64,000 nt of DNA from an uncultured Acidobacteriota bacterium (GCA_963828465.1 CAWHEU010000025.1:96001-160000); one strand, 5' to 3'. Shown: positions 10,033-31,144, numbered from the stretch's first letter. Notes: generated from the letters alone by a model not told the origin. Made by a program: numbers and translations.

Positions 10033-10105
10033 GCCCTCGTAGCTCAGGGGATAGAGCACCGGTTTCCTAAACCGGGTGTCGCAGGTTCGAATCCTGCCGA
10101 GGGCG
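10033..10105 (+). tRNA. tRNA-Arg (anticodon CCT)
   Basis: Full cloverleaf: acceptor GCCCTCG/CGAGGGC, D-arm GCTC/GAGC, anticodon stem CCGGT/ACCGG with loop TTCCTAA, T-arm GCAGG-TTCGAAT-CCTGC; CCA not encoded. Confidence 0.97.
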
Positions 10106-10206
10106 CCGAACCCCGGTTTGCCTTGTATTCATTGACTATCTGGCGCATACAGTCGATGTCTTCCGGCCCTGGTGAATCCCCGTGGCGCAGTTCGTAGAGT
10201 TCAACG

Positions 10207-10752
10207 ATGGCGTCAAATGAGCGACGCACCGCCGGTCTCCTCCTGGTCTCGGGGTTCGGATTTCTTATGGTCGCTGCTGTCCTGTTCACGGGAGGACCAG
10301 GCGGACCAGCCTTGCCTGAATGGCAGAGCCTTGCCCTTGGCTTGGGATTGGTCGTGACGTTGTTCGGTTTGGCCACATTCGAACTTGTCGTCCGTGACGC
10401 CGGAGAGCGCGTTCTGGGGCGACTGGGAACGATCGCTTTCCTTCTTGGGTGTGTTTCGTGGATCGTTGCGGATGCCGTCGCACTGGGCGGGCTGCCATGG
10501 ATATTCGAACTCGAACGGAACTACGTGGTGCTGGCCTGCTTTGCCCAGGTGGCCTTGGGCTGGGCAATTCTTCGCACCGAAGTCCTCCCCCGCTGGCTCG
10601 GTCGGGCAGCCATCGGGTGGAGCGTGGTCTGGGCTGCCCTCTACGTCAGCCGGATTGTGGAGGCGCCACTCCCTCTCAACCTGATCACTTTCCTTTTTGG
10701 CCTCTCGCTCCTCCGTCCCTGGCCATCCAGACCCCGGACGACGCAGGATTGA
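10207..10752 (+). CDS. Membrane protein (DUF4386-like), unit 1 cargo
   Basis: 181 aa, 5-6 TM helices, LGWAILRTEVLPRWLG motif. Confidence 0.7.
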   Translation: MASNERRTAGLLLVSGFGFLMVAAVLFTGGPGGPALPEWQSLALGLGLVVTLFGLATFELVVRDAGERVLGRLGTIAFLLGCVSWIVADAVALGGLPWIFELERNYVVLACFAQVALGWAILRTEVLPRWLGRAAIGWSVVWAALYVSRIVEAPLPLNLITFLFGLSLLRPWPSRPRTTQD

Positions 10753-10908
10753 ATAACGCGATCCGGCCTCACGCCCGATCTGGGGTAGATGGGCCAACCC
10801 GGGGCAGCCCATTTTCGAAATGGGGTCAACCATCCTTGGCCTGCCGGAGGTGTTTGGTTGTCCGGATCACCCCGACCAGACGGCCTCGGCGGCGTAAGGT
10901 GCGACAGG

Positions 10909-11987
10909 ATGGAGAATCGGGGATTTCTTCTGATCGCCGATATCACCGGATACACGGTTTACCTAAGCCAATCCGAACTCGCGGCATGCCCAGGGAACGC
11001 TCAGCCAGCTGCTTCGAGCTGCTGATCGAACACACCCGACCGCCGCTTCAGATATCGAGCCTGGAGGGAGATGCCGTCTTGAGCTACGCGGTCGGAGGCT
11101 GGCTTCGTCAGCGGCCAGACCTTCATCGAGAGTATCGAGAGCACTTACATCAGCTTCCGCAGAGCGATCGAGCTCATGGTTCTCAACAACACCTGTCGAT
11201 GTAACGCCTGTGCCAATGTCTCCTCACTCGACGTCAAGTTCCTCGTGCATAACGGGCCGTTCGTGATCCAACGCGTCGGCAACACGGCCCAGTTGTTGGG
11301 CAACGACATCAACCTCATCCACCGGCTGCTCAAGAACTCGGTGACGGCCGACACCGGAATTCGGGCCTATCTTCTCTGCACCGATGCGGCGATCAGAGTC
11401 CTGGGAATCGACCCGGCTTCTGAAGCCATGACCCGCCACCAGGAGACGGTCACCGATCTGGGAGACGTCTCCGTCTGGGTCAAGGACATGCACCCGGTGT
11501 ACCAGGCGAGGAGGGACGAGCGGCAGGTCACCTACACAGAGAAAGAGGTCTTGACCACTCTCGAAGCCGAGATCGCGATGCCGAGGGAACTGGTGTGGGA
11601 TTATCTCAACCAGTCCGAATTCCGCAACCTGGTGATCCAGTCCGACTCCTACGAGGTTCTCGACCGCGAGGCCGGCAAGGTCGGCCCCGGCAGCACGTAT
11701 CAGTGTTATCACGGGAAGATGGTCGTTCCTCAATTGGTCGTCGAGTGGCGGCCCTTCGAGCGGGTGCTGCTGAGCCAGCGACTTCCCTTCAAGGGGCGGC
11801 CCGTCCATGTGCTCATCGACTTCCGACTAACGCCGACCGAGGTTGGAACTCGGCTGACCGAGACCCGCCGCCCGGGTCTCCGGACCCGCGGCGAAACGCT
11901 TGTTCGCGCGGCTGTTCATCCGCAGCCAGCGCCAACGCAGCCAGCGCAGCCTCAACGACTTCCAGGACCAGATCCAGGGTGATCTAG
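10909..11987 (+). pseudogene. DUF2652 + SRPBCC protein, frameshifted (pseudogene or sequencing errors)
   Basis: MENRGFLLIADITGYTVYL, LEGDAVLSY, TCRCNAC, LLGNDINLIHRLLKN and a C-terminal SRPBCC domain spread over different frames. Confidence 0.75.
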
Positions 11988-12005
11988 CGGCTCATCAAGC
12001 CATCG

Positions 12006-12389
12006 CTAGCTCGGGAAACGGCTGAAGCCGGCCCGGTGGTTCGGTTCCACTCGGAGCAAGGCGTCGGCATTGGGCAGGTCACGCATGGTGGCGATGTAGT
12101 TCTCGGTCGGCTCGCCGTAGACCTCGAAGCCGATAGGTTCCAGGTAGTCGTAGGCAGTTCGGGCCCGGGCGACGGCGCCCTCCATGTGGGCGTCCATGGC
12201 GTCTGCATCGGCGAAAATGTGAACGATGCTGACCATTGTTCCCGCCTCGTTGGCGTAGAAGTTCTGGAAGACCGTTCTGGGCTTTTCCGCCTCGAGATCA
12301 GGCAGCACCTGGTCCACACTGCTCCACAACTCGCCCTCGCGCCCCTCCTTGATGTGAAAGTGGCTGATGTAGACAATTGGTCCAGACAT
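12006..12389 (-). CDS. Hypothetical protein, ABM/dimeric alpha-beta barrel-like
   Basis: IVYISHFHIKEG...SIVHIFADADAMDAHM...EVYGEP. Confidence 0.7.
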   Translation of the reverse strand: MSGPIVYISHFHIKEGREGELWSSVDQVLPDLEAEKPRTVFQNFYANEAGTMVSIVHIFADADAMDAHMEGAVARARTAYDYLEPIGFEVYGEPTENYIATMRDLPNADALLRVEPNHRAGFSRFPS

Positions 12390-12589
12390 GACTGCGAAGC
12401 TAGTGCGAGGGACCTCGAGCGCGTCCATGCACCGCTAGGCCCCAGATAGAAACTGAGCGGCTTCATTCCAATGAACCAGGTCAGGTCCTTCAGCTCACCG
12501 CGTCGGTGATTTGCCTAAACGGAGCGGTCAGTAAGACCACGAAATGAAGAACCAGGCCGTCCGGCCCTTCTGCTTCACAGGTTGCATCA

Positions 12590-12636
12590 GCGCGCCCGGG
12601 GCGACTCGAACACCCAACCTCCTGATCCGTAGATCT
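12590..12636 (-). repeat. 3' half of a tRNA-Arg(ACG) in inverted orientation (att-site remnant)
   Basis: Reverse complement gatctACGgatcaggaggttgggtgttcgagtcgccccgggcgcgc gives anticodon loop, T-arm (GGGTG-TTCGAGT-CGCCC) and acceptor 3' strand; no 5' half. Confidence 0.75.
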
Positions 12637-12846
12637 CCAAGCCCTGTCCATGTGTGTCCATGAGCGTCGGCAGAGCCAGAAGCAACGGCCATCGCTTCCA
12701 CCTGCATCCACGGCGGTCCTCGGCGATCCAGAGCGGATGGATCCCGACCATGACCGATTTCGAGATCATCGAAGCTGGGGTCGCCGCCCTGTATTCGGGC
12801 GACGCCGACACCCGTCAGTTTGCCCGTTATCGTCGGTCGTAGGGAG

Positions 12847-13320
12847 GTGCCTGTGATCGAGTATCAGGGTGAAACAATCATCGAACGCCCCGTGGATCAG
12901 GTGTTCGCCTACGCCGCCGCCTACAAGAACCTTCCTGAATGGTCTGATGTGTCTGACGTCGCCATGCTCACCGATGACCCGGTGGGTCAGGGCTCCCGGC
13001 TCAGGATGACGATGGGGAAGGGACCAATGCGAGCCACCCTCGACTTCGACATCGCCGCATGGGAGCCGAATCAGACCTGGAGCTACACAACTGTGCCTCC
13101 CGCCTGGATTCTTTGGGATGCCACGTATTCGGTGGAGCCGATCAGTCCCACCCCGACTCGAATCACCACTCACGGCCAGATCACGCTGAAAGGCTGGAGG
13201 CGCATCCTCGAGCCTCTGGTCCGCGGCGAAGTCGGCAAGAACGAGCAGCTCGAGCTCGACAAACTCAAGACAATCATCGAGCAACTGCCAAGCCCAGAAA
13301 CCGACGACCAAGGAAGCTAA
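12847..13320 (+). CDS. SRPBCC (polyketide cyclase-like) protein
   Basis: IERPVDQVFAYAAAYKNLPEW...DKLKTIIE; start approximate. Confidence 0.8.
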   Translation: MPVIEYQGETIIERPVDQVFAYAAAYKNLPEWSDVSDVAMLTDDPVGQGSRLRMTMGKGPMRATLDFDIAAWEPNQTWSYTTVPPAWILWDATYSVEPISPTPTRITTHGQITLKGWRRILEPLVRGEVGKNEQLELDKLKTIIEQLPSPETDDQGS

Positions 13321-13443
13321 AGGACGCTGCTCCGGCTTGGCTGTAACGTTTACCGACAAGGGTCGGGAGTCTGCTGAAAACGCGTCGTTGACACCTCGCG
13401 AGCTGGCGGACATTTGCGGACCGCCGGTCCAATCTCCCGTTCG

Positions 13444-13615
13444 AAATTGAGCACCGGAACGCGCCGACTCTAGAGAACGCGAAAAGCCTATGTTCATTGG
13501 GGATTTCGGGTGTTTAGAGGCCCGAATACAGAGCGTGTTTCCTAAACCGGGTGTCGCAGGTTCGAATCCTGCCGAGGGCACCGAACCCTTGCTTTCCCAT
13601 GGCCAGTCATTGACT
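13444..13615 (+). repeat. att-like junction copy 2 (left arm + tRNA-Arg 3' half + right box)
   Basis: ttgagcaccggaac...tgttcattgg...gtttcctaaaccgggtgtcgcaggttcgaatcctgccgagggc (13537-13579)...gtcattgact. Confidence 0.92.
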
Positions 13616-13707
13616 TTCGTGGGCTGGGCTTGTCGAGGGCAGCCACCGTTCAAGCGACGTGGCGCCTCACGTTGCGCTTACGTAACGGCTATGCGGCAAC
13701 CTGAGGG

Positions 13708-14959
13708 CATGAGGGAAAGCGCTGAGCGGCCGGCGAGCCCGACACATCCGACCGCGCCCATCGCACGCGGTGACCCTGGGAATGGTGTTCGGGCAACACC
13801 GAACCGGCCTTGGATCTGGGTGGCCGCTGCTCTCCTTCTCATCGTTGGCGTCTCATTCTTTCTCTACCTGCTGGCCGACTCCGACTATCGTGGGGAAGAG
13901 ACGCAATGGCCCTTGGGACTCGCCGCGCTCGTGTTCGTCGTGGTCGGCGCACTGTTGGTCGCCCTATGGACCGGCGGCCACCGGGTGGGCTGGATCCTTT
14001 CAGCCACCGGTCTTGCGTTGCTCATCAGCGGGGCAGCCGGGCTCCAGGCCGATGAGGGTGACCTGGTTGGCGAGGCCGTCGGTGGGGCGTGGCTGACGTG
14101 GTTCTTTCTGGTCGGCCTTCTCATGTATGGTTTCCGACCCGGGCATCCGGTGTCGCCTCGGTGGCGCTGGATCGCTTGGATGGGCGTCATCGGCGAGGGT
14201 TTCAGTCTCACCTATGTTGTTAGCGACCAACTGTGCGTCGAACACGGGGACGAAGCCTGTCTTGGCATGGGCGGACAACCCAATCGGCATCCAGAGCATG
14301 CCAAACCCGGAAAAACGGACCCTTGGCCGAATTGACCTTCCTGTTGATAGCTCTTTTTGCGATCTTGGCCGCGGTCTCTCAGGTGGTCCGGTACGTACGT
14401 TCCCGGGGGGTGGAGCGGCTCCAGATCAAGTGGTTCGCCTTCGCCGTCATCAGCGTCTTTGCGTTGATGTTGGTGGAAGGCGCCCTGCGAGATGTGCTCC
14501 CGCTCTCCCGACACTGGTCTGGGACCTACTCCTCGGCTCTGGCAGTTTCCGCACTGCCAGTCGCCATCGGCGCATCGGTGATGCGCTACGGGCTGTATGA
14601 GATCGATCGGATCATTTCTCGCACGGTACTCCTACGCGATCGTGATAGCCGTACTCGGATGGGTGTACCTAGCTGGCCTGACCGCACTCAGCTCACTGCT
14701 CCCTGCTGAATCGCCGCTGGCAGTGGCCGCCTCGACATTGGCGATAGCCGCATTGTTCAACCCCTTGCGCAAACGCGTCCAAGATTGGGTCGATCGCCGC
14801 TTCAATCGATCGCGCTTCGACGCCGAGCGGGTCATGACCCGGTTCGCCGAGTCCCTTCGGGATGAGGTCGATCCCGAGGCGGTCCTTGCTGGATGGGTCT
14901 CCGTGGTTTCGGAGACGATGCGCCCATCCACGAGCGCAGTGTGGGTTAGGGGCTCATGA
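13708..14959 (+). pseudogene. Multi-TM sensor-like membrane protein without output domain, frameshifted; sole cargo of unit 2
   Basis: Three overlapping frames give SPRWRW, RSRGVERLQIKWF, RYGLYEIDRIISRT, LFNPLRKRVQDWVDRRFNR. Confidence 0.7.
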
Positions 14960-15079
14960 AGGCGGTGCTCCCGTGGCTCCCGAGACGTCGAATCCGCTCA
15001 GATTCGATCAGTCAGCGGGGTTTCGCTCGTCGCGGTCGTCGAAAGATTTCTATCGGAATAGGCGCAAGCGGGAGATCAG

Positions 15080-15216
15080 ATTGAGCACCGGAACGTGCGA
15101 ACCTGATAGAGAACGCGAAAACCCCATGTTTATTGGCGTTTTCAGGTGTTTAGAGGCCCGAATACAGAGCAGGTTTCCTAAACCGGGTGTCGCAGGTTCG
15201 AATCCTGCCGAGGGCG
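15080..15216 (+). repeat. att-like junction copy 3
   Basis: Same left arm; tRNA 3' half identical at 15172-15216. Confidence 0.92.
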
Positions 15217-15236
15217 CACGATCCGGGGTAGCGATG

Positions 15237-16121
15237 TCAGCTAGCGGCAGCTACCACATCGAGAATCGCCTCAATGACGAGCTGGGGGTCTGCTTCTTCG
15301 ACCGCGTGCCCTGTGGTCACCACGATCTGCTTCGCACTGGGACTCAACACCAGCCAACCCTTCTGGTCCTCGACATTGGTCTGCTCGCCCGGAAACTCGG
15401 CATTGGGTCCATAGTCATTGGAGATGACCGTCACTGGGATGTCACCGATCTCCGTGCGCCCCGCCCAAGCATCCTTCTCTACCTGGAGGTAGTCCCGCTT
15501 CTCGATGTTGGACGGGCTGTCCCAGGCTGTCAGCTCGACGATCTCCTGCGGCGGGTCAACGAACGGGGATGGCGTCTCGACGAAGACCATGCCCGCCACC
15601 TCGTCGGGATGAGCGAACGCAAATCCAGCGGTGATGTAACCGCCCCCAGAAGTACCCACCAACACGTACGGCCCTTCGACATCAGCCGAATCGAGGAGAG
15701 CCTCGAGATCCCCCACTAGCTCCGACAGGCCGCGTGGTCCCTCAGCAGGATCGCTCCGGCCCAGATTCGCCCGGTCGTATACACAGGTTCGGGTCACGGC
15801 GGCGATATCGACCACGGCGAAGCCGTACGAGCTGCTGGTGTCTTCGTCGCCGCCCTCCATGATCACGGTCGGACTGCCCGACCCCCTGCAGCGGAGATAC
15901 AGGCTCCGCCCGCCGATGTCGACAACTTGGTCGATCTCCCCAACGGTGGATGCAGTCGACATCGTGGTAGACGCAACGGCGGTGATGTCCGGGGTAGAGA
16001 CGGGCTCTTCCGACGAAGACGAATCTGTGCCCTCCTCGGCTGAACAGCCGAGGGACACCAGAAGCGCGAGGCCTGCGAGGCCGAGCGCCGTTCTGCGTCG
16101 ATCGATGCCGGACGCCCTCAA
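15237..16121 (-). CDS. Secreted/lipoprotein alpha/beta hydrolase; sole cargo of unit 3
   Basis: Lipobox-like SLGC, CVYDRANLGRSD, GTSGGG nucleophile elbow, TGHAV. Confidence 0.85.
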   Translation of the reverse strand: MRASGIDRRRTALGLAGLALLVSLGCSAEEGTDSSSSEEPVSTPDITAVASTTMSTASTVGEIDQVVDIGGRSLYLRCRGSGSPTVIMEGGDEDTSSSYGFAVVDIAAVTRTCVYDRANLGRSDPAEGPRGLSELVGDLEALLDSADVEGPYVLVGTSGGGYITAGFAFAHPDEVAGMVFVETPSPFVDPPQEIVELTAWDSPSNIEKRDYLQVEKDAWAGRTEIGDIPVTVISNDYGPNAEFPGEQTNVEDQKGWLVLSPSAKQIVVTTGHAVEEADPQLVIEAILDVVAAAS

Positions 16122-16291
16122 GTCGCCCCAATCCGACCACGGATCGTCTGATTACTCCCCACCAAGATGTCCTCCCTTCACCCGCCCAGGACTGAACCCG
16201 AGTCCGACACCCGCATTCGCAGACGCAGACCGCAAGGTAACTACTAAAGCGCCGCAATGCCGCCTGACGAGTGCGCCTGGTCGTAGTGGAT

Positions 16292-16479
16292 GAGCGCAAC
16301 CGAAACTCCGCACCGGAACTGCCAGACCTGGAATACGCGAAAACCCTATGTTCCCCATGTTCATTGGCGTTTTCGGGTGTTCAGAGGCCCAAATACAAAG
16401 CAGGTTTCCTAAACCGGGTGTCGCAGGTTCGAATCCTGCCGAGGGCGCTGAGCGTGGTTTCCCCTCGTATTCATTGACT
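16292..16479 (+). repeat. att-like junction copy 4
   Basis: Left arm with a small internal duplication; tRNA 3' half at 16403-16447; tattcattgac at 16468. Confidence 0.92.
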
Positions 16480-16578
16480 TCTACGAGTGGGTCCTTGGGC
16501 TGGAGGGATATATCCCGTTGTGGATTCAGGGCGGAGCTTGGGCCGTCACGGCCACTGATCGCTGTGTTCTAATCGGCC

Positions 16579-17136
16579 ATGTCACAAAGGGCCAAAGGGT
16601 TGGCGGTGTCCTTGGGAGGTCTGACCTGGCTGGCGGGCGTTGCGATCCTGGAACTGACCTTCGACTCGTCGTCGGAAGACGACCTGCCGGTCATCTTTCT
16701 ATTGCTGGCAGTGTTTGCTGGCACGGCTGTTGGCTGGGGCTGTTGGAGCGCATCGCCGACTCTCGAACGCAGGCTGAGCCGAGTGGGCCTTAGGAGCGTG
16801 GCCGTGTGTTCGTTCGTCCTCGGGTTGGGGTTCGGATTGGCCTTCGTCCCGGACATGTTCCTGGCGTTCCTGCTCTCGTACAGCATCGGTTTGTTTCTTC
16901 TACCCGTGGCGTTCTTGGTGTTCGGCTTAGGGATTGCCAAGTCGACGGTCTATCCAGGATGGGCGAAATGGCTTCCATTCGTGGTCTTCGCTGTCGCCTT
17001 GATCACATATGGTTTTCACGCCCTGGCGCGCAATGTCTGGGACCCGAGTGACGCTGTTTGGTATACGGCGCTAGGTCTCGGATGGGTAGTCCTCGGGGCC
17101 GCTATCGCCTCCTTCCGAATTCCGAGCCGCGTGTAA
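16579..17136 (+). CDS. Membrane protein (DUF4386-like), unit 4 cargo
   Basis: 185 aa, about 6 TM helices, FGLGIAKSTVYPGWAKW. Confidence 0.7.
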   Translation: MSQRAKGLAVSLGGLTWLAGVAILELTFDSSSEDDLPVIFLLLAVFAGTAVGWGCWSASPTLERRLSRVGLRSVAVCSFVLGLGFGLAFVPDMFLAFLLSYSIGLFLLPVAFLVFGLGIAKSTVYPGWAKWLPFVVFAVALITYGFHALARNVWDPSDAVWYTALGLGWVVLGAAIASFRIPSRV

Positions 17137-17403
17137 GCCAAGGCTCCGATTCAGCGACTACCTACGCGAGATGACACAGCAGCACTCCAGTTGATAAGCG
17201 AAAAGGTCGATGTCGACTGCTAACGCCATTCCATTAGCTCGCTCTCACCTTGTGACCTCTCAGCTCGTGAGCCACCAGCAGATAACGGTCGCAGACGCAT
17301 TTCGGAACAGAGCACGAGATGCCTTCAATGTGCTCTCGGCGGGGATGCCCGCAGTGGTCACAACGCGCCTTTGAAGGGTTCCGTGAAGGGTTTCGTCGTT
17401 CCA

Positions 17404-17787
17404 CTATGAGAGGGTCTGGGACTGTTGGAGGCGTTCGAGATGGTCGCGGTCACGTTGCGTCCGCCGCCTTCTCGACCGGTAGAAAAGGCCGAACAACTCG
17501 GCGAAGACGACGCCGATGAGAATTGCGCCAAGGATGAGGACGATCAAAGGGGTCGAGAAGTCCCATGCCGTGAAGGTCACAGTGATGCTGGCTGTGTTCT
17601 GTGCGGCCAGGATCAGGACACCAATCGCCAACACCACCCCGATGATGAGCCCCCAGAAGAGGCCCGTGCCGACAAAGACCCGCTCTTTGGTTGCCGGTTG
17701 AGCGGTTGTCGAGGGTTCGGCTGTTGCGTCAGATATCAAGACAGTCCGATCACTCACTTCGCTTGAGATCGTGTTCGGCTGGCTCAT
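17404..17787 (-). CDS. LapA/DUF1049 family membrane protein
   Basis: LAAQNTASITVTFTAWDFSTPLIVLIL followed by a basic tail. Confidence 0.8.
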   Translation of the reverse strand: MSQPNTISSEVSDRTVLISDATAEPSTTAQPATKERVFVGTGLFWGLIIGVVLAIGVLILAAQNTASITVTFTAWDFSTPLIVLILGAILIGVVFAELFGLFYRSRRRRTQRDRDHLERLQQSQTLS

Positions 17788-18057
17788 TTCGACCGCGACG
17801 CGATAGGCGGCGGTGGGGTGGGTGACATCGTTATCGGCACAGGGACAAGACGATCAACCCCGATCGGCCACGGTCGTCGATACACGATTTCGGCGAGACG
17901 GGTTTTGAATGTCAACTCGAATCTGTTCCCGGTAAGGGCCACAACAAAGCTCCTTCGTTTGCGATCTACTTGAGAGATTACTTGCAATCTAACTATATGT
18001 CAAATAAGATGCCTGGCCAACACCTGACACACAAGTCCTGAAGGGAGCGCGTAGCGA

Positions 18058-18588
18058 ATGGACGATCGTATTGACAGCATCATTCGGGAGTGGCATGAAC
18101 GTCGGCCCGACCTCGACTTCTCGCCTCTCGAAATCGTGGCTCGAGTGATACGCGCCTCGCACTTCCTTCAAGACAGATTGGACCGGATCGCTGAGGCTTA
18201 CGGTCTGAGCCATACCGGCGACCTCGACGTTCTCACCGATCTCGACCGGGCCGGCCCGCCCCATCAGCGAACACCCTCAGAGCTGGCCGAGACCCTCCTC
18301 CTCACCACGGGAGGCATGACCGTCCGTCTCAACCGTCTGCAAAAGGCCGGGCTCGTCGAACGGCTCCCCAACCCTCGAGACGGCCGAGGTGTCCTAGTGC
18401 GTCTCACCCCGATCGGAAAGGAACTGGCCGAAGATGCCCTGGCCACGCTCCTCGACACCCAAGCGGCCAGCCTTGGAACACTCCAACACTCAGAACAGAT
18501 CGACCTGGCCACCCTGCTCCGAACCCTCCTCACAGCTCTCGGCGACACCCCGGCATTCCGACCCGCCATCGCAGTGCAACGCGGATGA
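18058..18588 (+). CDS. MarR family regulator (TamR/PecS-like)
   Basis: DSIIREWHERRPDLD...TPSELA...GGMTVRLNRL...DGRGVLVRLT. Confidence 0.9.
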   Translation: MDDRIDSIIREWHERRPDLDFSPLEIVARVIRASHFLQDRLDRIAEAYGLSHTGDLDVLTDLDRAGPPHQRTPSELAETLLLTTGGMTVRLNRLQKAGLVERLPNPRDGRGVLVRLTPIGKELAEDALATLLDTQAASLGTLQHSEQIDLATLLRTLLTALGDTPAFRPAIAVQRG

Positions 18589-18633
18589 GCTGAACACGGT
18601 CAAACGACAAAGGCCCCCCGTCGGAATGTCCTC

Positions 18634-18762
18634 AAACCCTATGTTCATTGGCGTTTTCGGGTGTTCAGAGGACCGAACACAGAGCAGGTTTCCTAAACCG
18701 GGTGTCGCAGTTCGAATCCTGCCGAGGGCGCCGACCTCCGTTTTATGTTGTATTCATTGACT
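18634..18762 (+). repeat. att-like junction copy 5
   Basis: Truncated left arm; tRNA 3' half at 18687-18730 (1-bp deletion in T-stem); tattcattgac at 18751. Confidence 0.92.
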
Positions 18763-18852
18763 TTCTGGGGCTGACCTTTGTCAAGGATTCTTGGGGCTGG
18801 TCTCGGCGCTTGGCGGCGCATCATGCGTTAAGAGTCGAGCGGTAGGTTCACC

Positions 18853-19248
18853 ATGATGAAGCTTCTGCGCCTGTTCGCCGACGACAACGGAGAGTCGCAC
18901 TTCGAGGACGTCGAAATAGCGTTTGAGGAAGTCGACGACTACTTCGAGAACACGCCACCAGTGTTGTTCTCCCCCTTCGAAGCCGCCTCTGAGTACGGCT
19001 TTGAGCGTGTTCCGCCGGGGTGGGTCGGATCATGGCATCCGGCACCGCACCGTGTTTTGGCGATCTATCTGTCGGGAGAACTAGAGATTGAAGCTTCTGA
19101 CGGAGAGGTTCGTCCGATTGGGCCCGGGACCATTCTTCTCGCAGAGGACACAACAGGCAAGGGTCATCGGAACCGTGTGACGAGCCCTACCGAGTTGGAG
19201 ATGGTCTTCATAACACTCCCAGACGGGGCGGCAAACGACCGCTCATAA
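18853..19248 (+). CDS. Cupin-fold protein; sole cargo of unit 5
   Basis: DNGESHFED, WHPAP, GELEIEASDG, EDTTGKGH. Confidence 0.85.
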   Translation: MMKLLRLFADDNGESHFEDVEIAFEEVDDYFENTPPVLFSPFEAASEYGFERVPPGWVGSWHPAPHRVLAIYLSGELEIEASDGEVRPIGPGTILLAEDTTGKGHRNRVTSPTELEMVFITLPDGAANDRS

Positions 19249-19347
19249 CGACCTGATTCTTCGACTCTTCTTGGGGAATCCCGAGATTCCTTGTCGTGTA
19301 AGGGTGGGCTCGGACGCCTTCAGAGTCGAGCAGCGTCAGACTGGAAG

Positions 19348-19505
19348 GAGCGCAACTGAAACTGAGCACCGGAACGCGCCCAACCTAGAGAACGCGAAAA
19401 CCCCATCTTCATTGGCGTTTTCGGGAGTTTAGAGGCCCAAATACAGAGCAGGTTTTCCTAAACCGGGTGTCGCAGGTTCGAATCCTGCCGAGGGCGCCGA
19501 ACCCC
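19348..19505 (+). repeat. att-like junction copy 6
   Basis: Full left arm; tRNA 3' half at 19451-19496 (one extra T); followed by ccgaacccc as after the intact tRNA. Confidence 0.92.
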
Positions 19506-19567
19506 ATCGATCAAGAATCGAAGCGCCCCTTCCTTCTCCCTTCAATGACTAAAAGCAAGGGTAAGTT

Positions 19568-21565
19568 TTGGCTGTGGCCCCTGGGCTAACCGCGAGGAGA
19601 GGCATTTATGCGATCTCCGCCGCGATCGTTCTCGTCCTGATGGTCGTCGGAGCCCTGTTCGCGGTGGTCAGCAACTTCGAGTTCCAGTGGGAAGAGAGCC
19701 CCATCCTGCTGACCATCTTCGCCTTCGGCCTCCTCGGCGCACTGGTCCTGTGGCGTCGCCCCGGTAACGCCATGGGCTGGGTCTTCTCAGCCATGGGTCT
19801 GAGCGGCACGCTGGCAGCCGCTCCCCAAACCGGCGCAGGCGTAGCTCTGGGTGGCCTGGGCTGGTTCACATTTTTCTTTCTCACCTTCGCCGTCCTCCCC
19901 ATGCTGTATCCCACCGGAGAGACCTTGCCGCGGTGGCGCTGGGTACTCCTCACCTCCATCATCGCCTATGCCGGTTTCGCCTTCCTCTGGATCTTCCAAG
20001 AGACCCTGTGTCTGGAAGTCAATGTGACCGATGGGGAGGAGGTCTGCATCGAATCAACGCCGAATCCGATCGGTATCGACGGGATCGAAAACCCCGAAAA
20101 CTCGGGGCCGGGCTCGATCCTGCTCCTCTCGTTCCTCATCGCCGGCGTGGCCGGCCTGGCGTCGCTGGCGATTCGCTATCGCCGGGCTCGAGGCATCGAA
20201 CGACAGCAGCTGAAATGGTTGCTGCTCTCCCTTGCCGCCCTGATGGGCTTCGTGTTCCTGTTCGACATCTTCCTGGCCGAATGGTTCGGTTTCCAATTGC
20301 CCGAACCGCTGTACAAAGCGATCATCGCCGTCTTGTGGCTCGGTCTGCCGACGACAGCAGGGCTCGCCATCTTCCGCTACGGACTCTATGACATCGATCG
20401 AGTCATCAGTCGTACCGTGGCCTATGGACTGGTGGTGGCCACCCTCACCATCGCCTATGTCGCGATAGTTACGGGTGTCGGCGCCGTCGTGAGCGAGTTC
20501 AGCCCATCCAACGTTGACCTGCCCATGCCCGTCATCGCCACGGCCCTAGTCGCGATCGCCTTTCTTCCGGTTCGGCAGAGAGCGATCAGGTTGGCTGACC
20601 GCATGGTGTTCGGAAGACGCCGGACACCGTATGAGGCCCTGGCAGGAGTCGGGGGTGCACAATTGGACGACCTGCTCCCGCAGATTGCACAACTCGCCAC
20701 TGAGTCGACGGCCGCCCGCGCCGCCATTGTCTGGCTCTCAGACGGCACGGAGTTGCAGCCTGCCGCCATTTTTCCCCAGAACGGCTCGCCACCCGAACCG
20801 ATTGCACTCGATGACGGTCGACTCCCGGCCGCGTCGGATCTGGGCGAGACTCTCCCCCTCACCCACCAGGAGAGTCTTCTGGGCGCCATCACCATCATCA
20901 CCGGCCCTGGGGAAGACCTGCCCGCCGAGGACCGCCGGCTCCTGACCGACCTGGCAGCGCATGCCGCGCTCACCCTGCACGGGGTGTTGGAATCCACTCC
21001 CCTACCCACAGGGATCGTCACATTCCTTATGACCGACATCGAAGGGTCAACGAGGCTCTGGGAAGATGATGCGGAAACGATGGCTGTGGCCCTCCGCACC
21101 CACGATGCGATGGCGCGCCGCGTAGTCGGCGACGGAGGTGGGGTCCTGGTGAAGTGGCGAGGTGAGGGTGACAGCACGTTTTCGGTGTTCACCAACGCGG
21201 GCCAGGCGGTGCTGACCGCCATGACTCTGCAGGAGGCGATCCGAGGCCATGAGTGGGGGACCGTCCGGCCAATCTCGATTCGCGCCGCCCTCCACACCGG
21301 GGAAGCCGAGTTGCGAGAGCGCGACTACTTCGGTCAGACGGTCAACCGATGCGCACGTCTCCGCTCACTGGCCAAGGGCGGCCAGACCCTGGTTTCAGCC
21401 GCCACACGCGAACTCGCCCGGGAAGGGCCTTCCCTGGAAATGCGTTTCGCCGATCTCGGCCAGCATCAGCTCAAGGACGTGAGCGAGCCAGAGCAGGTCT
21501 ACGAAGTAATCGCAACAACCGCCTCCGACGTATCGACCGAGATGCCGCCAAAACCCACGGACTAA
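19568..21565 (+). CDS. Membrane-bound class III adenylate/guanylate cyclase
   Basis: N-terminal multi-TM domain, GAF-like linker, TFLMTDIEGST, GEGDS, ALHTGE, YFGQTVNRCARL, LKD. Confidence 0.9.
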   Translation: MAVAPGLTARRGIYAISAAIVLVLMVVGALFAVVSNFEFQWEESPILLTIFAFGLLGALVLWRRPGNAMGWVFSAMGLSGTLAAAPQTGAGVALGGLGWFTFFFLTFAVLPMLYPTGETLPRWRWVLLTSIIAYAGFAFLWIFQETLCLEVNVTDGEEVCIESTPNPIGIDGIENPENSGPGSILLLSFLIAGVAGLASLAIRYRRARGIERQQLKWLLLSLAALMGFVFLFDIFLAEWFGFQLPEPLYKAIIAVLWLGLPTTAGLAIFRYGLYDIDRVISRTVAYGLVVATLTIAYVAIVTGVGAVVSEFSPSNVDLPMPVIATALVAIAFLPVRQRAIRLADRMVFGRRRTPYEALAGVGGAQLDDLLPQIAQLATESTAARAAIVWLSDGTELQPAAIFPQNGSPPEPIALDDGRLPAASDLGETLPLTHQESLLGAITIITGPGEDLPAEDRRLLTDLAAHAALTLHGVLESTPLPTGIVTFLMTDIEGSTRLWEDDAETMAVALRTHDAMARRVVGDGGGVLVKWRGEGDSTFSVFTNAGQAVLTAMTLQEAIRGHEWGTVRPISIRAALHTGEAELRERDYFGQTVNRCARLRSLAKGGQTLVSAATRELAREGPSLEMRFADLGQHQLKDVSEPEQVYEVIATTASDVSTEMPPKPTD

Positions 21566-21754
21566 CCCGCCACTCCGCTCCTGGTCGTCGCCATTTGTCC
21601 GGGCGTATCGCAAATTGCCCAACCCCAGACTCGTCCGGTTTGGTCCTGTTCCCTTTTCTTAGTCATTCGTGCCGCGGCGGCGGATGGCGCTGACCGACGC
21701 GATCTCAGTAGTACGCCGAATGCCGGAACCGCCAGGTCGCTCCGTACGCCTTGG

Positions 21755-22429
21755 TCACGCCTGTGAGAAGTCGGCCCTGTTCGGGATGCGGTCCGGCGGC
21801 GTGCCGATGACGATTGCTATGACGAGCTGGTCGTCGAGCTCGATATCCGCGGGGTCGCCCTCGTACTCCTCGCCGTCGATGTATACCGCGATGTCGGTCT
21901 CCGCCTCGCAGAACTCGCCGACGCACTCGTCATCGAGCCTGACTCCCCACTCGGTGAATAGCTGGCCGAGGGTCAGCAGCGTGTCGGCGGCCGCCTCGGT
22001 GTGGATCATGCCGGTCTCGTCGTGGGTGTGGAGCGGTGAGATGCACGGATTGGTGCACTCCTCGATGCCCCCGTACGCGCCATCGTCGGGGAAGTGCTGG
22101 ACACCAGGATCGGTGATGTCGATGCCAAGGCCGGCGGGCACGGGCACCGCCTCTCCATCGACGAAGACGCCGAGATGTGAGTGACGGTGCGTCTCCAGCT
22201 GCTCTTTGACCTCCGGCGTCAGACCCGCCTCGGTGGTCCGTTCGATCGGGTCGTCCGGCGCGGGCCACTCGGGGAACCCGTTGGCTGGGCGCGCCCTGTC
22301 GACGGACTCGCTCTCGTCTCCACCGCACGCGGCGACCGCGATCGCGCCAACAAGGATCACGGTCAGGCATGCGACGGAGGGTCGTCGGCTAAATGGTTCC
22401 ACGCGCCGACTTGCCCTTGGGTGTGCCAC
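21755..22429 (-). CDS. Lipoprotein with His-rich putative metal-binding motifs
   Basis: Lipobox VAAC; HRHSHLGVFVDG and LHTHDETGMIHTE. Confidence 0.75.
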   Translation of the reverse strand: MAHPRASRRVEPFSRRPSVACLTVILVGAIAVAACGGDESESVDRARPANGFPEWPAPDDPIERTTEAGLTPEVKEQLETHRHSHLGVFVDGEAVPVPAGLGIDITDPGVQHFPDDGAYGGIEECTNPCISPLHTHDETGMIHTEAAADTLLTLGQLFTEWGVRLDDECVGEFCEAETDIAVYIDGEEYEGDPADIELDDQLVIAIVIGTPPDRIPNRADFSQA

Positions 22430-22741
22430 CGATCTCCCGTCCCTGTGAACCCGAAGCTAGGTGAGTGCAGAACGTATGCCTGGCCGAACGCCCAAATAGA
22501 TTTCGCGGACCCGACGCGCCTCAACCTGCCGAGTGTTCCGACCCACCCCGATCGCTCAGCCCTACCCATATCGGGTAGAACCGGTGACCGGCAAGTGCTA
22601 GGACGATCCTGTTGACCAGCTTCATGGCTCTAGGTCGTCCGCCATGACGGAAGCATTCCAGAGAATGCGTCATCTATCACCAGATAGGCTGCCACCGACC
22701 AAGGTGCGGGGCCGAGGTTGTTACCCAGAAGGGAGATTGGC

Positions 22742-23092
22742 ATGCTGCCTATAACCCGCAAACACCTAGCTGACGCCGAAGAGACCATGACCTTCAAGCA
22801 TGGCAAGTCCATTCTCGTCCGCTTCGGCGACGAGGAGGTTTGGCGCTCCGAGCTGGAGCCCGGCTGGAACTGGGACGAAGATCTGGAGCCATACGCGGAA
22901 GGGGCGACAAGCTGCCCGCTCACCCACCGCGAGCTGGTGATCTCGGGCACCATCCGATATCTCATGGAGGACGACACCGAGGTGGTTGCATCCGAAGGCG
23001 ATGCCTTATTCATCCCACCCGGACATCGGGCCTGGGTTGTGGGAGATGAGACCTGTGTCCTCATCGACTGGCAGACTGAGCCAAGCTTCTGA
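22742..23092 (+). CDS. Cupin domain protein
   Basis: LEPGWNW...SCPLTH...FIPPGHRAWVVGDE. Confidence 0.85.
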   Translation: MLPITRKHLADAEETMTFKHGKSILVRFGDEEVWRSELEPGWNWDEDLEPYAEGATSCPLTHRELVISGTIRYLMEDDTEVVASEGDALFIPPGHRAWVVGDETCVLIDWQTEPSF

Positions 23093-23310
23093 CTCCAAAG
23101 AGCCGCATGGTGCTACCTCCTCCAAGAGCGGTGGGGTGCGCTATGCAGACATCGGCCTTGTCGAGCTCAAAGGCCTCGCCGACGCCATTCACCTCCACTC
23201 CGCACATCGGAGGTGACCACAGGGTGTCGACACCGGCAGTGCATGCGTTCAGGAAGGAGGCGCGGTCCGCGACCACACGTGAGTCGACGGGCCGGTAGTA
23301 CGGTCGAGCG

Positions 23311-23859
23311 GTGAGCGCCAATCGATTCGTGGCATTGCTTCGCGGTATAAACGTCGGTGGCCGCAACTTGATCTCGATGGCGGACCTACAGGACGCCTTC
23401 ACCGCCGAGGGATACCGCGATGCCAGGACCTACATCCAGTCGGGCAACGTCCTATTCGAGTCGGACACAGCCCGAGGCTCGCTCGAGGAAGAACTCGAGG
23501 CAATGCTCCAACGTCGGCTCGGCGTCGAGTTGGTTGTAGTCGTTCGATCACATCTTCAATTGCGCAACCTCGTCGCCAAGTCGCCAAAAGGGTTTGGAGA
23601 CGAGCCCAACCTCTATCACTCGGACGTGATCTTCCTCAAATCTCCTCTCACCCCGCATAGGGCGATGCGAGTGGTCAAGGTCCGGGACGGTGTCGACCAG
23701 GTATGGCCGGGGACTGGTGTCCTCTATTTCGCTCGTTTGAGCGCACGACGAACCCAGACCAAGATGGGCAGCATCGTCGGCACGCCGGAGTACAAGCTGA
23801 TGACGATCCGAAGTTGGAGTACGACAACCAGGCTGCTCGGTCTCTTCGATGAGCAATAG
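23311..23859 (+). CDS. DUF1697 family protein
   Basis: VALLRGINVGG, TYIQSGNV, TIRSWST. Confidence 0.9.
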   Translation: MSANRFVALLRGINVGGRNLISMADLQDAFTAEGYRDARTYIQSGNVLFESDTARGSLEEELEAMLQRRLGVELVVVVRSHLQLRNLVAKSPKGFGDEPNLYHSDVIFLKSPLTPHRAMRVVKVRDGVDQVWPGTGVLYFARLSARRTQTKMGSIVGTPEYKLMTIRSWSTTTRLLGLFDEQ

Positions 23860-24264
23860 ACGCGGGACGAGCCTCTCTCGAGCACATTTAGGCATCTAAG
23901 AGCGCCTCGTTGACCCGTTGATGGGGTTGGTCGGGGTCAGCGGCGCCGGCGTCCGCGGAGGGTAGCGAACGAGACCGCCCCGAGCGCGTAGCGCTCAACA
24001 ACACTGGAGGGGTGTTTCGGGGCCCCGGTAGCTGGAGCGAAATGAGTACACCTAAACGGGATCGAGAGATGTCCCGGAATCGGGTTTCGCACCGCTTGGT
24101 TTATCGAGTGGTCGGACCTCGCCAGCGTTGAAACCCCCAGCGAACTCACGTACGGCGAGGAAGAGTAAGAAGGTCCTTCGGGGCTGCTCTCATACATGCC
24201 ACCTCGCGGGAGGCTGGGAGTAGGGTCGAATGAGGCAACACGCGGAGCCTTGGAGGTGTTCGAG

Positions 24265-25122
24265 ATGGTGACCGATACACCGAGTCCGGTCAACATTGAG
24301 GAAGGCGAACAGATTGCCGAGGCCAACTCGTCGGGCCGCCAACCAGTTGTATTCATTCACGGTCTCTGGTTGTTGGCTTCGAGTTGGGATCGGTGGGCTT
24401 CGATGTTCAAGGATGCCGGCTATGCGCCCCTCACACCGATTTGGCCCGACGATCCGGAAACCGTGGAAGAGGCCCGAGCGCATCCCGACCTCCTCGCCAA
24501 CAAGACCTTGAAGCAGGTCGCCGACCACACCACGGAGATCATCGATGCCTTGGACCAGAAACCTGCGCTTGTGGGTCACTCCACCGGGGGCCTGCTGGCA
24601 GAGATGCTCGCGGGCCAGGGCCTCTCAGCGGCCACAGTCGCGATCGATCCGGGGGTCTTCCGCGGCGTCCTACCCCTGCCAGGCTCCGTGCTCAAGGGGG
24701 TGGGCCTCCTCCTGATCAACCCGCTCAACCGCGGTCGCGCGATCACGCTCACGTTCAACCAGTTCAAGTACGGCTGGGCGAACGCGTTAGATGACAGAGA
24801 AGCGAAGGAGCTCTACGACACATTCCACGTCGCCGGATCGGGGATATCTCTCGCCCAGATGGGCAACGCCAATCTCAATCCTTGGACAGAGTCCAAAGTG
24901 AACACGAAGTACCCCGACCGCGGCCCCCTACTGATCATCGATGGCGAGAAGGACCACACAGTGCCGTGGGCGATCGCGAACGCCGCCTATATGCGACAGA
25001 TGCGCAACCCCGGCGTGACCGAGATCGTGAAGATCCCCCATCGGGGGCACTCACTGACCATCGATCATGGCTGGCGCGAAGTAGCAGACAGGGCGCTCAA
25101 CTTCGTCAAGCGATTCGTCTAA
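24265..25122 (+). CDS. Alpha/beta hydrolase
   Basis: VVFIHGLW, GHSTGG, DHTVP, RGHSLTID; start approximate. Confidence 0.88.
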   Translation: MVTDTPSPVNIEEGEQIAEANSSGRQPVVFIHGLWLLASSWDRWASMFKDAGYAPLTPIWPDDPETVEEARAHPDLLANKTLKQVADHTTEIIDALDQKPALVGHSTGGLLAEMLAGQGLSAATVAIDPGVFRGVLPLPGSVLKGVGLLLINPLNRGRAITLTFNQFKYGWANALDDREAKELYDTFHVAGSGISLAQMGNANLNPWTESKVNTKYPDRGPLLIIDGEKDHTVPWAIANAAYMRQMRNPGVTEIVKIPHRGHSLTIDHGWREVADRALNFVKRFV

Positions 25123-25277
25123 CCGCACGCCAAACTTGCAGGGAGACGAGAACGCCTTCGAACCGGCGCGCAGGTCGGATGCGTGGGGTTCTCGCCTCTC
25201 CTTTTGGTAAGGCGCGAAGTTGCTATCCCACATCTAGGTCGGAACCGCCCGGCGACCCATCGTCAGGTGAGCGAAGA

Positions 25278-31059: not shown

Positions 31060-31098
31060 CCGCTGCCCACCTCGTCACACCGTCGCGCCTGACAACGG

Positions 31099-31144
31099 AC
31101 ACAGAGCAGGTTTCTAAGCCCGGGCGTCGCAGGTTCGAATCCTG
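31099..31144 (+). repeat. Degenerate att-like junction copy 7
   Basis: acacagagcaggtttctaagcccgggcgtcgcaggttcgaatcctg keeps the arm end (acagagcagg) and T-arm; acceptor strand lost. Confidence 0.8.

Follow-up and report, generated by a model that had tools for sequence, protein, structure and literature searches.

A conserved arm of about 94 nt beside partial tRNA-Arg(CCT) copies, a probable half-site of integrase-less gene cassettes in an Acidobacteriota genome

Behind the tRNA-Arg(CCT) gene of an uncultured Acidobacteriota bacterium lie five cassette ends, each consisting of a non-tRNA arm (~94 nt, shortened in one) fused to a partial tRNA copy spanning anticodon stem to 3' end. We consider it probable (roughly 0.6) that this arm represents one half, the P-arm, of an attP-type site belonging to integrase-less tRNA-Arg(CCT) cassettes, which would be moved by an integrase acting in trans. 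As integrase-less units the cassettes resemble cis-mobilizable elements (CIMEs), and the stacking of small gene packets behind a tRNA is an already known route to variable genome regions. A preliminary description of the stretch had likewise read the arm as the P-arm of a shared attP. In favour of that reading stand the exclusive link of the arm to tRNA, its travel with the cassette on its left, its block-wise conservation and a related box beyond the core. The further claim, that one recombinase is common to all cassettes, is something we infer, because no integrase or accessory protein is tied to the arm.

Within the window, i.e. the whole 64-kb stretch that was analysed, full arms are present in four of the five cassette ends (copies 2, 3, 4, and 6), and copy 5 has the proximal part alone. 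The array and its cargo are laid out as follows.

10033..10107, plus strand: intact tRNA-Arg(CCT), the array anchor (attB/attL side; ARAGORN, Rfam tRNA 69 bits)
10108..10150, plus strand: P'-side box TTGTATTCATTGACT after the tRNA, with TCATTGAC at 10129-10136 (repeat families)
10108..13443: cassette K1, with a membrane protein, a frameshifted DUF2652 gene, a 140-aa ORF and an SRPBCC/polyketide-cyclase-like gene (Pfam, reading frames)
13444..13536, plus strand: arm of copy 2, complete, 11 of 94 positions differing from the consensus
13537..13583, plus strand: core of copy 2, tRNA-Arg(CCT) from anticodon stem to 3' end
13584..15079: cassette K2, the N-terminal domain of a membrane sensor, now a frameshifted relic (tblastn, 28% identity, two frames)
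13607, 16471 and 18754, plus strand: P'-side box again, after copies 2, 4 and 5 (repeat families)
15080..15172, plus strand: arm of copy 3, complete
15173..15219, plus strand: core of copy 3
15220..16304: cassette K3, an alpha/beta hydrolase on the minus strand (Pfam)
16305..16403, plus strand: arm of copy 4, complete, 19 deviations from the consensus, 9 nt duplicated in tandem (CCCTATGTT)
16404..16450, plus strand: core of copy 4
16451..18633: cassette K4, with a membrane protein, a LapA-domain protein and a MarR regulator (Pfam)
18634..18687, plus strand: arm of copy 5, proximal ~54 nt alone (arm HMM positions 40-88 only)
18688..18733, plus strand: core of copy 5, one T-stem nucleotide deleted
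18734..19358: cassette K5, one cupin gene (Pfam)
19359..19451, plus strand: arm of copy 6, nearest to the family consensus (5 of 94 positions off)
19359-19379, 19386-19403, 19405-19425 and 19441-19452, plus strand: conserved blocks of the copy 6 arm
19426-19440, plus strand: variable spacer of the copy 6 arm
19452..19498, plus strand: core of copy 6, with one additional T ahead of the anticodon loop
19499..31095: older part of the island, a GAF/cyclase sensor cassette and then more accessory genes (Pfam)
31096..31144, plus strand: copy 7, an armless, diverged core with ~14 nt of arm left, probably the outer end of the island

The shared arm of copies 2, 3, 4, and 6 and the proximal piece in copy 5 (~54 nt) had been noticed in the preliminary description and are borne out; the length given there, ~100 bp, is better put at ~94 nt, with a sharp left edge at (G)AAACTGAGCACC that persists in copies with unrelated upstream DNA. 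In copy 5 the distal arm blocks are swapped for unrelated sequence. The copies form a diverged family, as had been proposed, and include no exact duplicates; pairwise identity of the arm-plus-core units is 82-91%, and within-genome BLAST gives E-values of 1e-33 to 1e-48. The TGTTCATTGG box starts exactly 46 nt ahead of GTTTCC in all five copies (13491, 15127, 16358, 18642, and 19406), just as reported earlier, but its sequence is exact in only three, the variants being TGTTTATTGG in copy 3 and TCTTCATTGG in copy 6. Indels of 1, 2, and 9 nt distinguish the arms. The sole internal repeat is GAACGCG, present twice, 18 nt apart, a word not enriched in the window; the arm is without obvious tandem arm-type repeats such as those of the arms classed below as type 3. 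The palindrome in the arm is limited to a 7+2-bp dyad. This dyad, CGAAAAC-N15-GTTTTCG, is present as described and 93% of cells pair over 32 aligned copies; its changes include a single compensatory cell as opposed to 19 broken ones, and the dyad is no better than shuffles, which reach its score 151-201 times in 500. The left limit previously set for the tRNA core could not be upheld, since degenerate tRNA likeness extends further left, where ATACAGAGCA-GG resembles the D-arm ATAGAGCACCGG.

The arm is confined to tRNA-Arg islands. A search with an arm-only HMM, as suggested earlier, gave eight matches in the whole 3.07-Mb genome, five at tRNA-Arg(CCT) and three at tRNA-Arg(CCG), every one directly preceding a tRNA part and in the same orientation as the tRNA; dispersal over the genome independent of tRNA halves, which the preliminary description had named as counting against its reading, was not seen. 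All 32 aligned arm copies likewise adjoin a tRNA part at the far end of an insert, in tRNA orientation. At least 13 of the 30 other genomes of the genus contain full-length arm-plus-core matches, usually several per genome (at least 10 full arms in G029), and one weak match was found in addition in G022. The arm is also carried by 9 metagenome contigs. For 70 genomes outside the genus, the matches listed are to the tRNA part alone.

Substitutions in the arm are distributed unevenly. The 32 copies show 262 differences from the arm consensus, strongly clumped (dispersion 5.2), a clumping reached by none of 2000 uniform simulations in a test that assumes independent copies and that shared ancestry could inflate. 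The substitutions concentrate in the stretches that separate three or four nearly invariant blocks, among them AAACTGAGCACCGGAACGCGC, TAGAGAACGCGAAAACCC, and ATGTTCATTGGCGTTTTCGGG. Arms from one genome do not group together (on average 13.8 pairwise differences within genomes versus 14.4 between), and 27 of the 32 have their nearest neighbour in another genome; concerted evolution is therefore not the cause of their likeness.

A related box is also found beyond the core. The window contains 10 occurrences of TCATTGRC where 3.8 would be expected, and seven of these lie in the array on the plus strand, at -46 in the arms and at +21 to +24 after the cores. Of 36 cores in the wider set, 13 are followed by the P' box; P' sequences vary, forming at least two types, and are absent after about one third of cores. 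Within the core, the switch falls at CCGGGTG or directly after it in one CCT/CCG hybrid core and in three independent junctions that are truncated. Identity of the 3'-type begins at tRNA position 34 in G092, and a 5'-type element in G060 copies tRNA positions 1-42.

The arm travels with the cassette on its left. Cassette K3 is 93.6% identical over its whole length in G012, where another cassette, ending in another variant of the arm, comes before it, and two identical arms in G003 and G029 have a common upstream cassette. The GAF-cyclase cassette, sixth in the window, directly follows the tRNA in G012 and G019. Contigs from soil metagenomes fuse the tRNA and P' box straight to the GAF-cyclase cassette, omitting 9410 nt, fuse the copy-3 core to the same cassette, or join the end of the MarR cassette to a full arm with K5 omitted. 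The LapA-MarR portion of K4 was found again at six loci in relatives. Species and soil metagenomes thus differ in which cassettes they contain and in what order, the junctions falling at the cores. Cassettes measure 0.76-3.5 kb in this genome and their cargo consists of accessory genes; K1 to K5 are each core-bounded and without any recombinase family. No recombinase or transposase family was detected among 29 ORFs of the window and 136 ORFs from arrays of relatives, and the protein encoded beside the tRNA, NYN/OST-HTH here and membrane hydrolase-like in some relatives, is not a recombinase in either case. Several cargo genes are pseudogenised and three of six cassette ends are damaged, and the array in this genome may be inert.

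An autonomous element with the same arm beside an int gene, which the preliminary description had proposed looking for, did not turn up in 31 genomes of the genus or in the 122 metagenome and 12 viral loci retrieved by pattern scans. In the present genome (G000, 92% complete) the PF00589 genes number just two and are Xer-type, with best scores to XerC and XerD, one adjoining dprA and both on contigs other than that of the array; no serine recombinase was found in it. G008 and G029 likewise have just two PF00589 genes each. None of 28 extra-integrase loci of the genus has an Arg(CCT) core or the arm; most are at other tRNAs, and nine are without a tRNA in the stretch examined. All these assemblies are of metagenome type and incomplete, with 7 to 890 contigs, and mobile or extrachromosomal elements are easily missed in them, so a cognate integrase may have escaped detection. 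Integrases do occur at this tRNA in relatives: a 6.6-kb element with integrase lies at tRNA-Arg(CCT) in G092, a decayed integrase with two excisionase-like ORFs directly behind tRNA-Arg(CCT) in G025 (same genus), and in G195 an integrase that is intact and lies at a distance of 1.3 kb from an arm and Arg(CCT) core. In G025 and G092 the integrase is on the P' side beside the tRNA. The integrase-linked Arg(CCT) sites in G025, G005, G081, and G195 bear other arms; significant likeness to the arm of the window was seen in two of nine 'type 2' arms and none of four 'type 3' arms, and the G195 arm was not significant. An integrase-bearing relative that could mobilise the cassettes was thus not found at the same site in this genome, and the examples or remnants in G025, G092, and G195 have other arms.

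On the P-arm reading, the complete site would run from the arm through a ~47-nt copy of tRNA-Arg(CCT), anticodon stem to 3' end, into a P' stretch of ~45 nt in most cassettes. A circular cassette bearing this site would recombine with the tRNA gene, restoring the tRNA and placing the cassette behind it, closed by the arm and the displaced tRNA part; repeated rounds would stack cassettes. Since no recombinase is encoded in the cassettes, an integrase would have to act in trans, presumably a tyrosine integrase specific for tRNA-Arg(CCT) and provided by an autonomous relative, in the manner of CIMEs or satellites. The invariant blocks would be putative binding sites for the arm-binding domain of the integrase and for bending or excision factors, and strand exchange would probably take place around tRNA positions 34-47 (TAAACCGGGTG).

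The arms could instead be scars, leftovers of integrase-bearing cargo elements that lost the integrase end by deletion, with no protein using them now and RecA-type recombination between the ~140-nt repeats reshuffling the cassettes. Repeats of 140 nt at ~90% identity are known to suffice for homologous recombination. Deletion of an integrase from the P' side would erode P' and spare the far P-arm, which fits a uniform P-arm with a patchy P', and the star-like divergence of arms from a common consensus, the pseudogenised cargo and damaged ends in the window and the lack of integrase in G000, G008, and G029 are consistent with the same history. Neutral decay, however, predicts evenly spread substitutions, whereas those observed in 32 copies are clumped in spacers around the three or four nearly invariant blocks; truncated and hybrid junctions gather at one core point rather than at random, and the left edge of the arm stays sharp despite unrelated DNA upstream. 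Leftovers of this kind are considered a rather unlikely explanation.

A platform resembling an integron, in which a host-encoded or unrecognised recombinase, such as XerC/XerD or a protein lacking any known recombinase domain, uses the arm and tRNA part and a dedicated integrase is normally absent, would account for well-preserved arms in G000, G008, and G029, whose tyrosine recombinases are of XerC/XerD-type only, as well as for the small accessory cassettes and the differences in cassette order between species. The fragmented assemblies, from which mobile elements are readily missed, the ordinary tRNA-Arg(CCT) integrases or remnants known in the same genus and family, and the non-recombinase nature of the tRNA-adjoining proteins make such a platform very improbable. 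Least credible, with only a slight chance of being correct, is a functional RNA or regulatory element (small RNA, leader, terminator/insulator, or promoter) that adjoins the tRNA copy by chance. The conserved dyad, the likeness of the proximal arm to a degenerate tRNA D-arm region and a frame that stays open over the arm consensus could be cited for it. The arm is, however, intergenic and without coding or RNA-structure signal: RNAalifold gave compensatory change in 0 of 24 pairs, Rfam nothing beyond tRNA, and no arm matches a promoter or terminator. Nor is the arm the 3' end of a coding sequence, an outcome the preliminary description had also held against itself; it lies 110-190 nt past varied genes of unrelated families in either orientation, and its indels are not multiples of three.

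The P-arm reading places the site near several known systems. The attP of tRNA-targeting heterobivalent tyrosine integrases has phage lambda-type architecture, mycobacteriophage L5 and actinomycete integrative elements being examples, and tRNA sublocation classes were reportedly described by Williams in 2002. Common features are a two-armed site of ~190 nt, a copied 3' portion of the target tRNA through which integration rebuilds the gene, conserved blocks (putative arm-type binding sites) at fixed core distances and a displaced tRNA part at the far end of the insert. Here, in contrast, the site has no accompanying integrase gene and no clear tandem arm-type repeats, one arm is common to many unrelated one- to three-gene cargos, and cores are also present within a tRNA-Arg(CCG) island.

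The ICESt1/ICESt3 family provides examples of CIMEs and of accretion in tandem at att sites. Like these, the cassettes are att-flanked units without integrase or transfer genes, in tandem at one site and presumed to be mobilised by the integrase of a related element, but they are much smaller, stand at least five in a row and have no cognate integrative element in cis or elsewhere in the genome. Integrons, whose cassettes are closed by attC sites, share the arrangement of small cassettes of accessory genes in an array, with a conserved repeat resembling a recombination site at the end of each and an order that varies among relatives. An integron as such was rejected, with no IntI gene adjoining the array, a NYN/OST-HTH gene as upstream neighbour and Xer-type genes as the only PF00589 genes of the genome. 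An attC-type folded palindrome was rejected as well, dyad changes breaking the pairing (1 compensatory versus 19 broken) and the dyad not outscoring shuffles. Unlike an integron, the array has genes in both orientations and a tRNA gene as anchor, and its repeat has a pairing pattern that supports no folded palindrome.

Additive flexible genomic islands at tRNA genes of Alteromonas (PMC4898812) and tycheposon-built islands of Prochlorococcus (bioRxiv 10.1101/2020.12.28.424599) consist, in the portions of these accounts available, of integrase-carrying elements and poorly delimited remnants. As far as those portions go, the present island shares with them a tRNA-anchored hotspot with varying cassettes, partial tRNA repeats downstream of inserts, newer inserts beside the tRNA and degenerate remnants across the island. 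It differs from the islands so described in that none of its units has an integrase and nearly every one keeps a well-conserved 94-nt arm.

The intact tRNA-Arg(CCT) gene, the sole intact tRNA gene in the window, is followed on the same strand by five more copies of its 3' part, at spacings of 3475, 1636, 1231, 2284 and 764 nt. Each copy (the core) extends from the anticodon stem to the acceptor end and is preceded by all or part of a ~94-nt non-tRNA repeat, the arm; the cassettes between cores are termed K1 to K5 in order from the tRNA. A second array lies on another contig (C26) of the same genome.

Features of the two tRNA-Arg arrays (window coordinates unless stated otherwise)
10033-10107, plus strand: intact tRNA-Arg(CCT) gene
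13444: start of the full ~94-nt arm of copy 2
15080: start of the full arm of copy 3
16305: start of the full arm of copy 4
16344-16361: 9-nt tandem duplication (CCCTATGTT) inside the copy 4 arm
18634: start of the copy 5 arm, of which the proximal ~54 nt alone are retained
19359: start of the full arm of copy 6
19499-31144: genes for a GAF/cyclase sensor, cupin, DUF1697, alpha/beta hydrolase, RibD_C, glyoxalase, an ABC-2 transporter pair, GntR and PNPOx
31096-31144: further diverged tRNA-part copy (copy 7)
C26:90400-107192 (locus L003), minus strand: second array, behind tRNA-Arg(CCG), with three full arms and CCT-type tRNA parts

The preliminary description had placed the arms correctly. The TGTTCATTGG box begins 46 nt upstream of GTTTCC in all five copies, exact in three and with a single substitution in copy 3 and in copy 6. 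The copies are, as described there, a diverged family, with scattered substitutions and small indels between them; among the full arms copy 4 departs furthest from the consensus, with 19 differences. The region from copy 6 to copy 7 looks like an older island from which recognisable arms are gone.

An alignment of 32 copies, drawn from six genomes, shows a sharp left edge of the arm at (G)AAACTGAGCACC. The 262 differences from consensus in these arms are clumped (dispersion index 5.2, with the observed variance reached by 0 of 2000 uniform simulations), such that positions 1-21, 28-45, 47-67 and 83-94 are nearly invariant and positions 22-27 and 68-82 vary freely. The core itself is almost invariant, 27 of the 32 copies having at most one difference. 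On the far side of the core, the P' stretch, a box (TTGTATTCATTGAC and variants) lies at +22 to +24 in 13 of 36 units, with near-variants in a few more; otherwise a second type is found in ~7 units and nothing recognisable in roughly one third. Within the window the word TCATTGRC occurs 10 times against 3.8 expected, and seven of these sites are inside the array, all on the plus strand, either at -46 in the arms or 21-24 nt past the cores. From the P' boxes and these two-sided sites, the entire unit therefore looks like an arm, a core and a second arm, ~190 nt in total.

Within the 3.07-Mb, 29-contig genome, BLAST of the five units gives between-copy E-values of 1e-33 to 1e-48 on two contigs only. 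An HMM of 32 arm copies, with the tRNA part left out, has eight matches genome-wide, five in the window and three on C26. With matches confined to two contigs, the arm is therefore not the genome-wide repeat whose possibility had been raised earlier. The three C26 arms lie behind tRNA-Arg(CCG) in that tRNA's orientation, each fused to a CCT-type tRNA part; two of these three parts have odd acceptor ends (GCCGAGAGCG, GCCGGGGGCG). Of 30 other genomes in the genus, 13 match a 140-nt arm-plus-core query over its full length, mostly several times each, copy numbers per relative being lower bounds; one more genome, G022, has one weak match. In 70 genomes outside the genus, only the tRNA part was matched among the matches listed. 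One of the 13 arm-bearing genomes (G027) is unpublished and is also the source of three inspected integrase loci; the unpublished G018, G028, G063, G074 and G102 were used in tallies only, and no conclusion hangs on unpublished genomes alone.

Beyond these genomes, a gapped 19-base arm pattern was too loose, returning 133 loci. BLAST confirmed arms at 10 of these, on nine contigs, all metagenomic, and none of the 10 encodes an integrase. The arm is absent from the 12 viral loci of the pattern scan, and an 18-mer of the arm has zero matches in viral contigs. Among species representatives a 20-mer of the P' box matches only G012 and G029, both of the genus; its three remaining matches, one of them viral, were dismissed as low-GC chance matches. 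On one metagenome contig an IS3-type transposase fragment (HTH_21 + rve; L061:1426-2022, minus strand) abuts the left edge of the arm. The host is an actinobacterium, because its genome has six WhiB genes; among 14 control genomes WhiB was detected only in Corynebacterium. Two assemblies of the genus are titled 'uncultured Acidobacteriota', which the WhiB result contradicts, and these titles look mislabelled.

Several other readings of the arm were considered. The arm is not the 3' end of a coding sequence, as had been thought conceivable, being intergenic and beside unrelated gene families in either orientation; a coding reading is also rejected on the 1-, 2- and 9-nt indels by which copies differ. 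A structured RNA is rejected as far as can be told, none of 24 RNAalifold pairs having a compensatory change. The imperfect dyad of the preliminary description is indeed 93% paired, but this is because the arm sequence is conserved: 1 compensatory cell stands against 19 broken ones, and the dyad's scores are reached by 151-201 of 500 shuffles. Rfam gives no family beyond the tRNA, and promoter- or terminator-like sites number zero inside the arms. Concerted evolution as the source of arm likeness is rejected since there is no within-genome clustering. Mean pairwise arm differences are 13.8 within versus 14.4 between genomes, and for 27 of 32 arms the nearest neighbour is in a different genome.

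The arm belongs with the cassette to its left. K3 (15220-16304) is found at 93.6% identity over its full length in G012, preceded there by a different cassette with a different arm variant, and G003 and G029 have an identical arm pair with the upstream cassette common to both. Cassette order also varies. In the window K1 to K5 are followed by the GAF-cyclase cassette and lastly the PNPOx gene; in G012 the tRNA is followed by the GAF-cyclase cassette, then by K3, the LapA-MarR part of K4 and PNPOx, and in G019 the GAF-cyclase cassette is likewise first after the tRNA. Among soil-sequencing contigs, one joins the tRNA and P' box straight to the GAF-cyclase cassette, skipping 9410 nt, another joins the copy-3 core to that cassette via a P' box, and in a third K5 is skipped, so that a full arm follows the MarR cassette end. 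These alternative junctions, compared at ≥90% likeness in related strains and with short flanks of 22-47 nt, lend modest support to cassettes as core-bounded units.

Cargo in the window cassettes comprises regulators, hydrolases, cupins and membrane proteins. Frameshifts break the DUF2652 gene of K1 (10900-11982), a case of cargo decay, and K2 (13584-15079) holds only a two-frame relic of the GAF/cyclase sensor (19568-21565), matching its N-terminal membrane domain at 28% identity. Cassettes of relatives encode a heliorhodopsin (Pfam E 6e-101) and a TIR-domain protein (L031:12516-13295, L034:9862-10647), and have in addition several beta-lactamase-fold, CAAX-protease and sigma/anti-sigma genes.

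Strand crossing probably occurs at tRNA positions 34-42, because 3'-type and 5'-type identity blocks overlap at these positions and several junctions break there. Three independent junctions retaining the arm and the left core part all break within TAAACCGGGTG(T): the composite that closes the tRNA-Arg(CCG) island on its outer side (conserved in the genome of the window, G026 and G006), one in G020 and one in G022. One G019 core is CCT-type through CCGGGTG and CCG-type beyond, CCGGGTG being the 7 nt common to both tRNA-Arg genes at that place. The composite island end, in G026 and G006 as well, runs from the arm and CCT loop to CCGGGTG, through ~150 nt of conserved sequence, into a CCG-type 3' half.

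An autonomous element with the same arm beside an int gene, for which the preliminary description proposed a search, was found in none of the genomes, metagenome loci and viral loci searched. The genome of the window, 92% complete, has two PF00589 genes, one adjoining dprA and scoring best as XerC, the other scoring best as XerD or general Xer subfamily, and no serine recombinase domains. The Xer pair is present in all 31 genomes of the genus. G008 and G029 have this pair only, yet G029 has at least 10 full arms. Inspection of 28 extra-integrase loci of the genus found neither the Arg(CCT) core nor the arm in any; their sites are tRNA-Thr, Asn, Pro, Glu, Phe, Met, Val, Ala or Ser, or the fetched piece holds no tRNA. 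By Pfam, no recombinase other than one IS3-type fragment is encoded among 29 window, 136 relatives'-array and 25 metagenome-contig ORFs. These searches cover mostly draft, metagenome-type assemblies, which an extrachromosomal or unbinned helper could escape.

An ORF of 500-700 aa beside the tRNA in G012 and G029 was rejected as the array recombinase, because it encodes a multi-pass membrane protein whose C-terminal part has an HSQGS hydrolase-like motif. It lies between an NYN/OST-HTH gene and tRNA-Arg(CCT), has no Pfam match, and is missing there in G019 and in the genome of the window.
L030:13929-15905, minus strand: membrane-protein ORF
L032:13052-14539, minus strand: membrane-protein ORF
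L036:2570-4684, plus strand: membrane-protein ORF

Integrases do occur at tRNA-Arg(CCT) in relatives. G092, of the same order, has a 6.6-kb integrase-bearing element behind this tRNA, its far repeat beginning at tRNA position 34. In G025, of the same genus, a decayed integrase (…LGHASATMTLDRYSHL…) and two excisionase-like ORFs lie directly behind the tRNA; this remnant is closed by another kind of arm, in which TTGTCCGT is repeated in tandem. In G195 an intact integrase of 376 aa stands 1.3 kb from an arm and Arg(CCT) core, with a second integrase remnant past that core. G060 (L225, G060:C7, 5770-5811 and 12477-12764) is a mirror image: tRNA positions 1-42 are copied exactly ~6.9 kb upstream of tRNA-Arg(CCT), and an integrase C-terminus ends ~90 nt ahead of the intact tRNA.

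A second arm type, used by G005, G025 and G047, has by eye two features in common with this arm, the word TAGAG and the distal box AAACTGAnCACC(C)GGA, and MAFFT suggests blocks common to this arm and the other arm types found at this tRNA. None of those other types is picked up by the arm HMM. A shuffle test supports likeness for two of nine 'type 2' copies, for none of the repeat-bearing 'type 3' and not for G195, so no firm claim of deep homology is made. Several relatives have the word CTGACCWGG ~30-40 nt ahead of their tRNA-Arg(CCT) genes, and it recurs within the second arm type and on the P' side (GCTGACCTTTGTCA). The word may be a promoter or regulator site that travels with the attachment site.
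L225:12640-12690: CTGACCWGG
L028, ~1700-1740: CTGACCWGG
L203, ~12126-12170: CTGACCWGG
L203, L204 and L205, type-2 arms: CTGACCWGG

A role as P-arm of a shared attP, as first proposed, still fits the arm best, although no integrase with this arm was found; the cassettes would then be integrase-less units needing an enzyme supplied in trans. In the main rival reading, the arms are scars of one cargo-carrying element family whose integrase end was lost, and present-day shuffling is due to homologous recombination between the 140-nt repeats. Pseudogenised cargo and damaged cassette ends in the window accord with scars, and deletion of an integrase on the P' side, where it lies in G025 and G092, would explain a uniform P-arm and a patchy P' side; block-wise conservation of the arm and the piling up of break points at one core spot argue against them. 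Near-invariant arm blocks in genomes without other recombinase would also be explained by a host-run, integron-like platform with no dedicated array-linked integrase. Arm and tRNA part would here form a cassette site at which XerC/XerD or an unrecognised host recombinase excises cassettes and re-inserts them at tRNA-Arg, a scheme considered very improbable.

If the shared P-arm is a working docking site, this soil actinobacterial genus has a reservoir of very small gene packets without an enzyme of their own, which any tRNA-Arg integrase that comes along could shuffle. Integron-like strain variation would then arise from ordinary tRNA-site machinery. The conserved arm blocks are concrete targets for binding tests, and the 764-nt single-gene cassette K5 is a handy substrate for an excision test. 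What could lift the case above the ordinary is the identity of the enzyme acting on a site that enzyme-less genomes keep.

CIMEs and accretion, attP arm architecture and tRNA sublocation classes form the background for comparison. The likeness to CIMEs and satellites is that the integrase-less cassettes here would depend on an enzyme in trans. Alteromonas is described as having 'additive' islands anchored at tRNA genes, with partial repeats of the tRNA lying downstream of the cassettes (PMC4898812), and stacking with degenerate remnants is documented for the tycheposons of Prochlorococcus (bioRxiv 10.1101/2020.12.28.424599). A full-text literature search for integrase-less tandem tRNA-site attP islands gave nothing on this lineage among the matches listed. 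What is particular here, in genomes in which the enzyme was not found, is that many unrelated cargos of one to three genes have a single, well-conserved arm of 94 nt in common.
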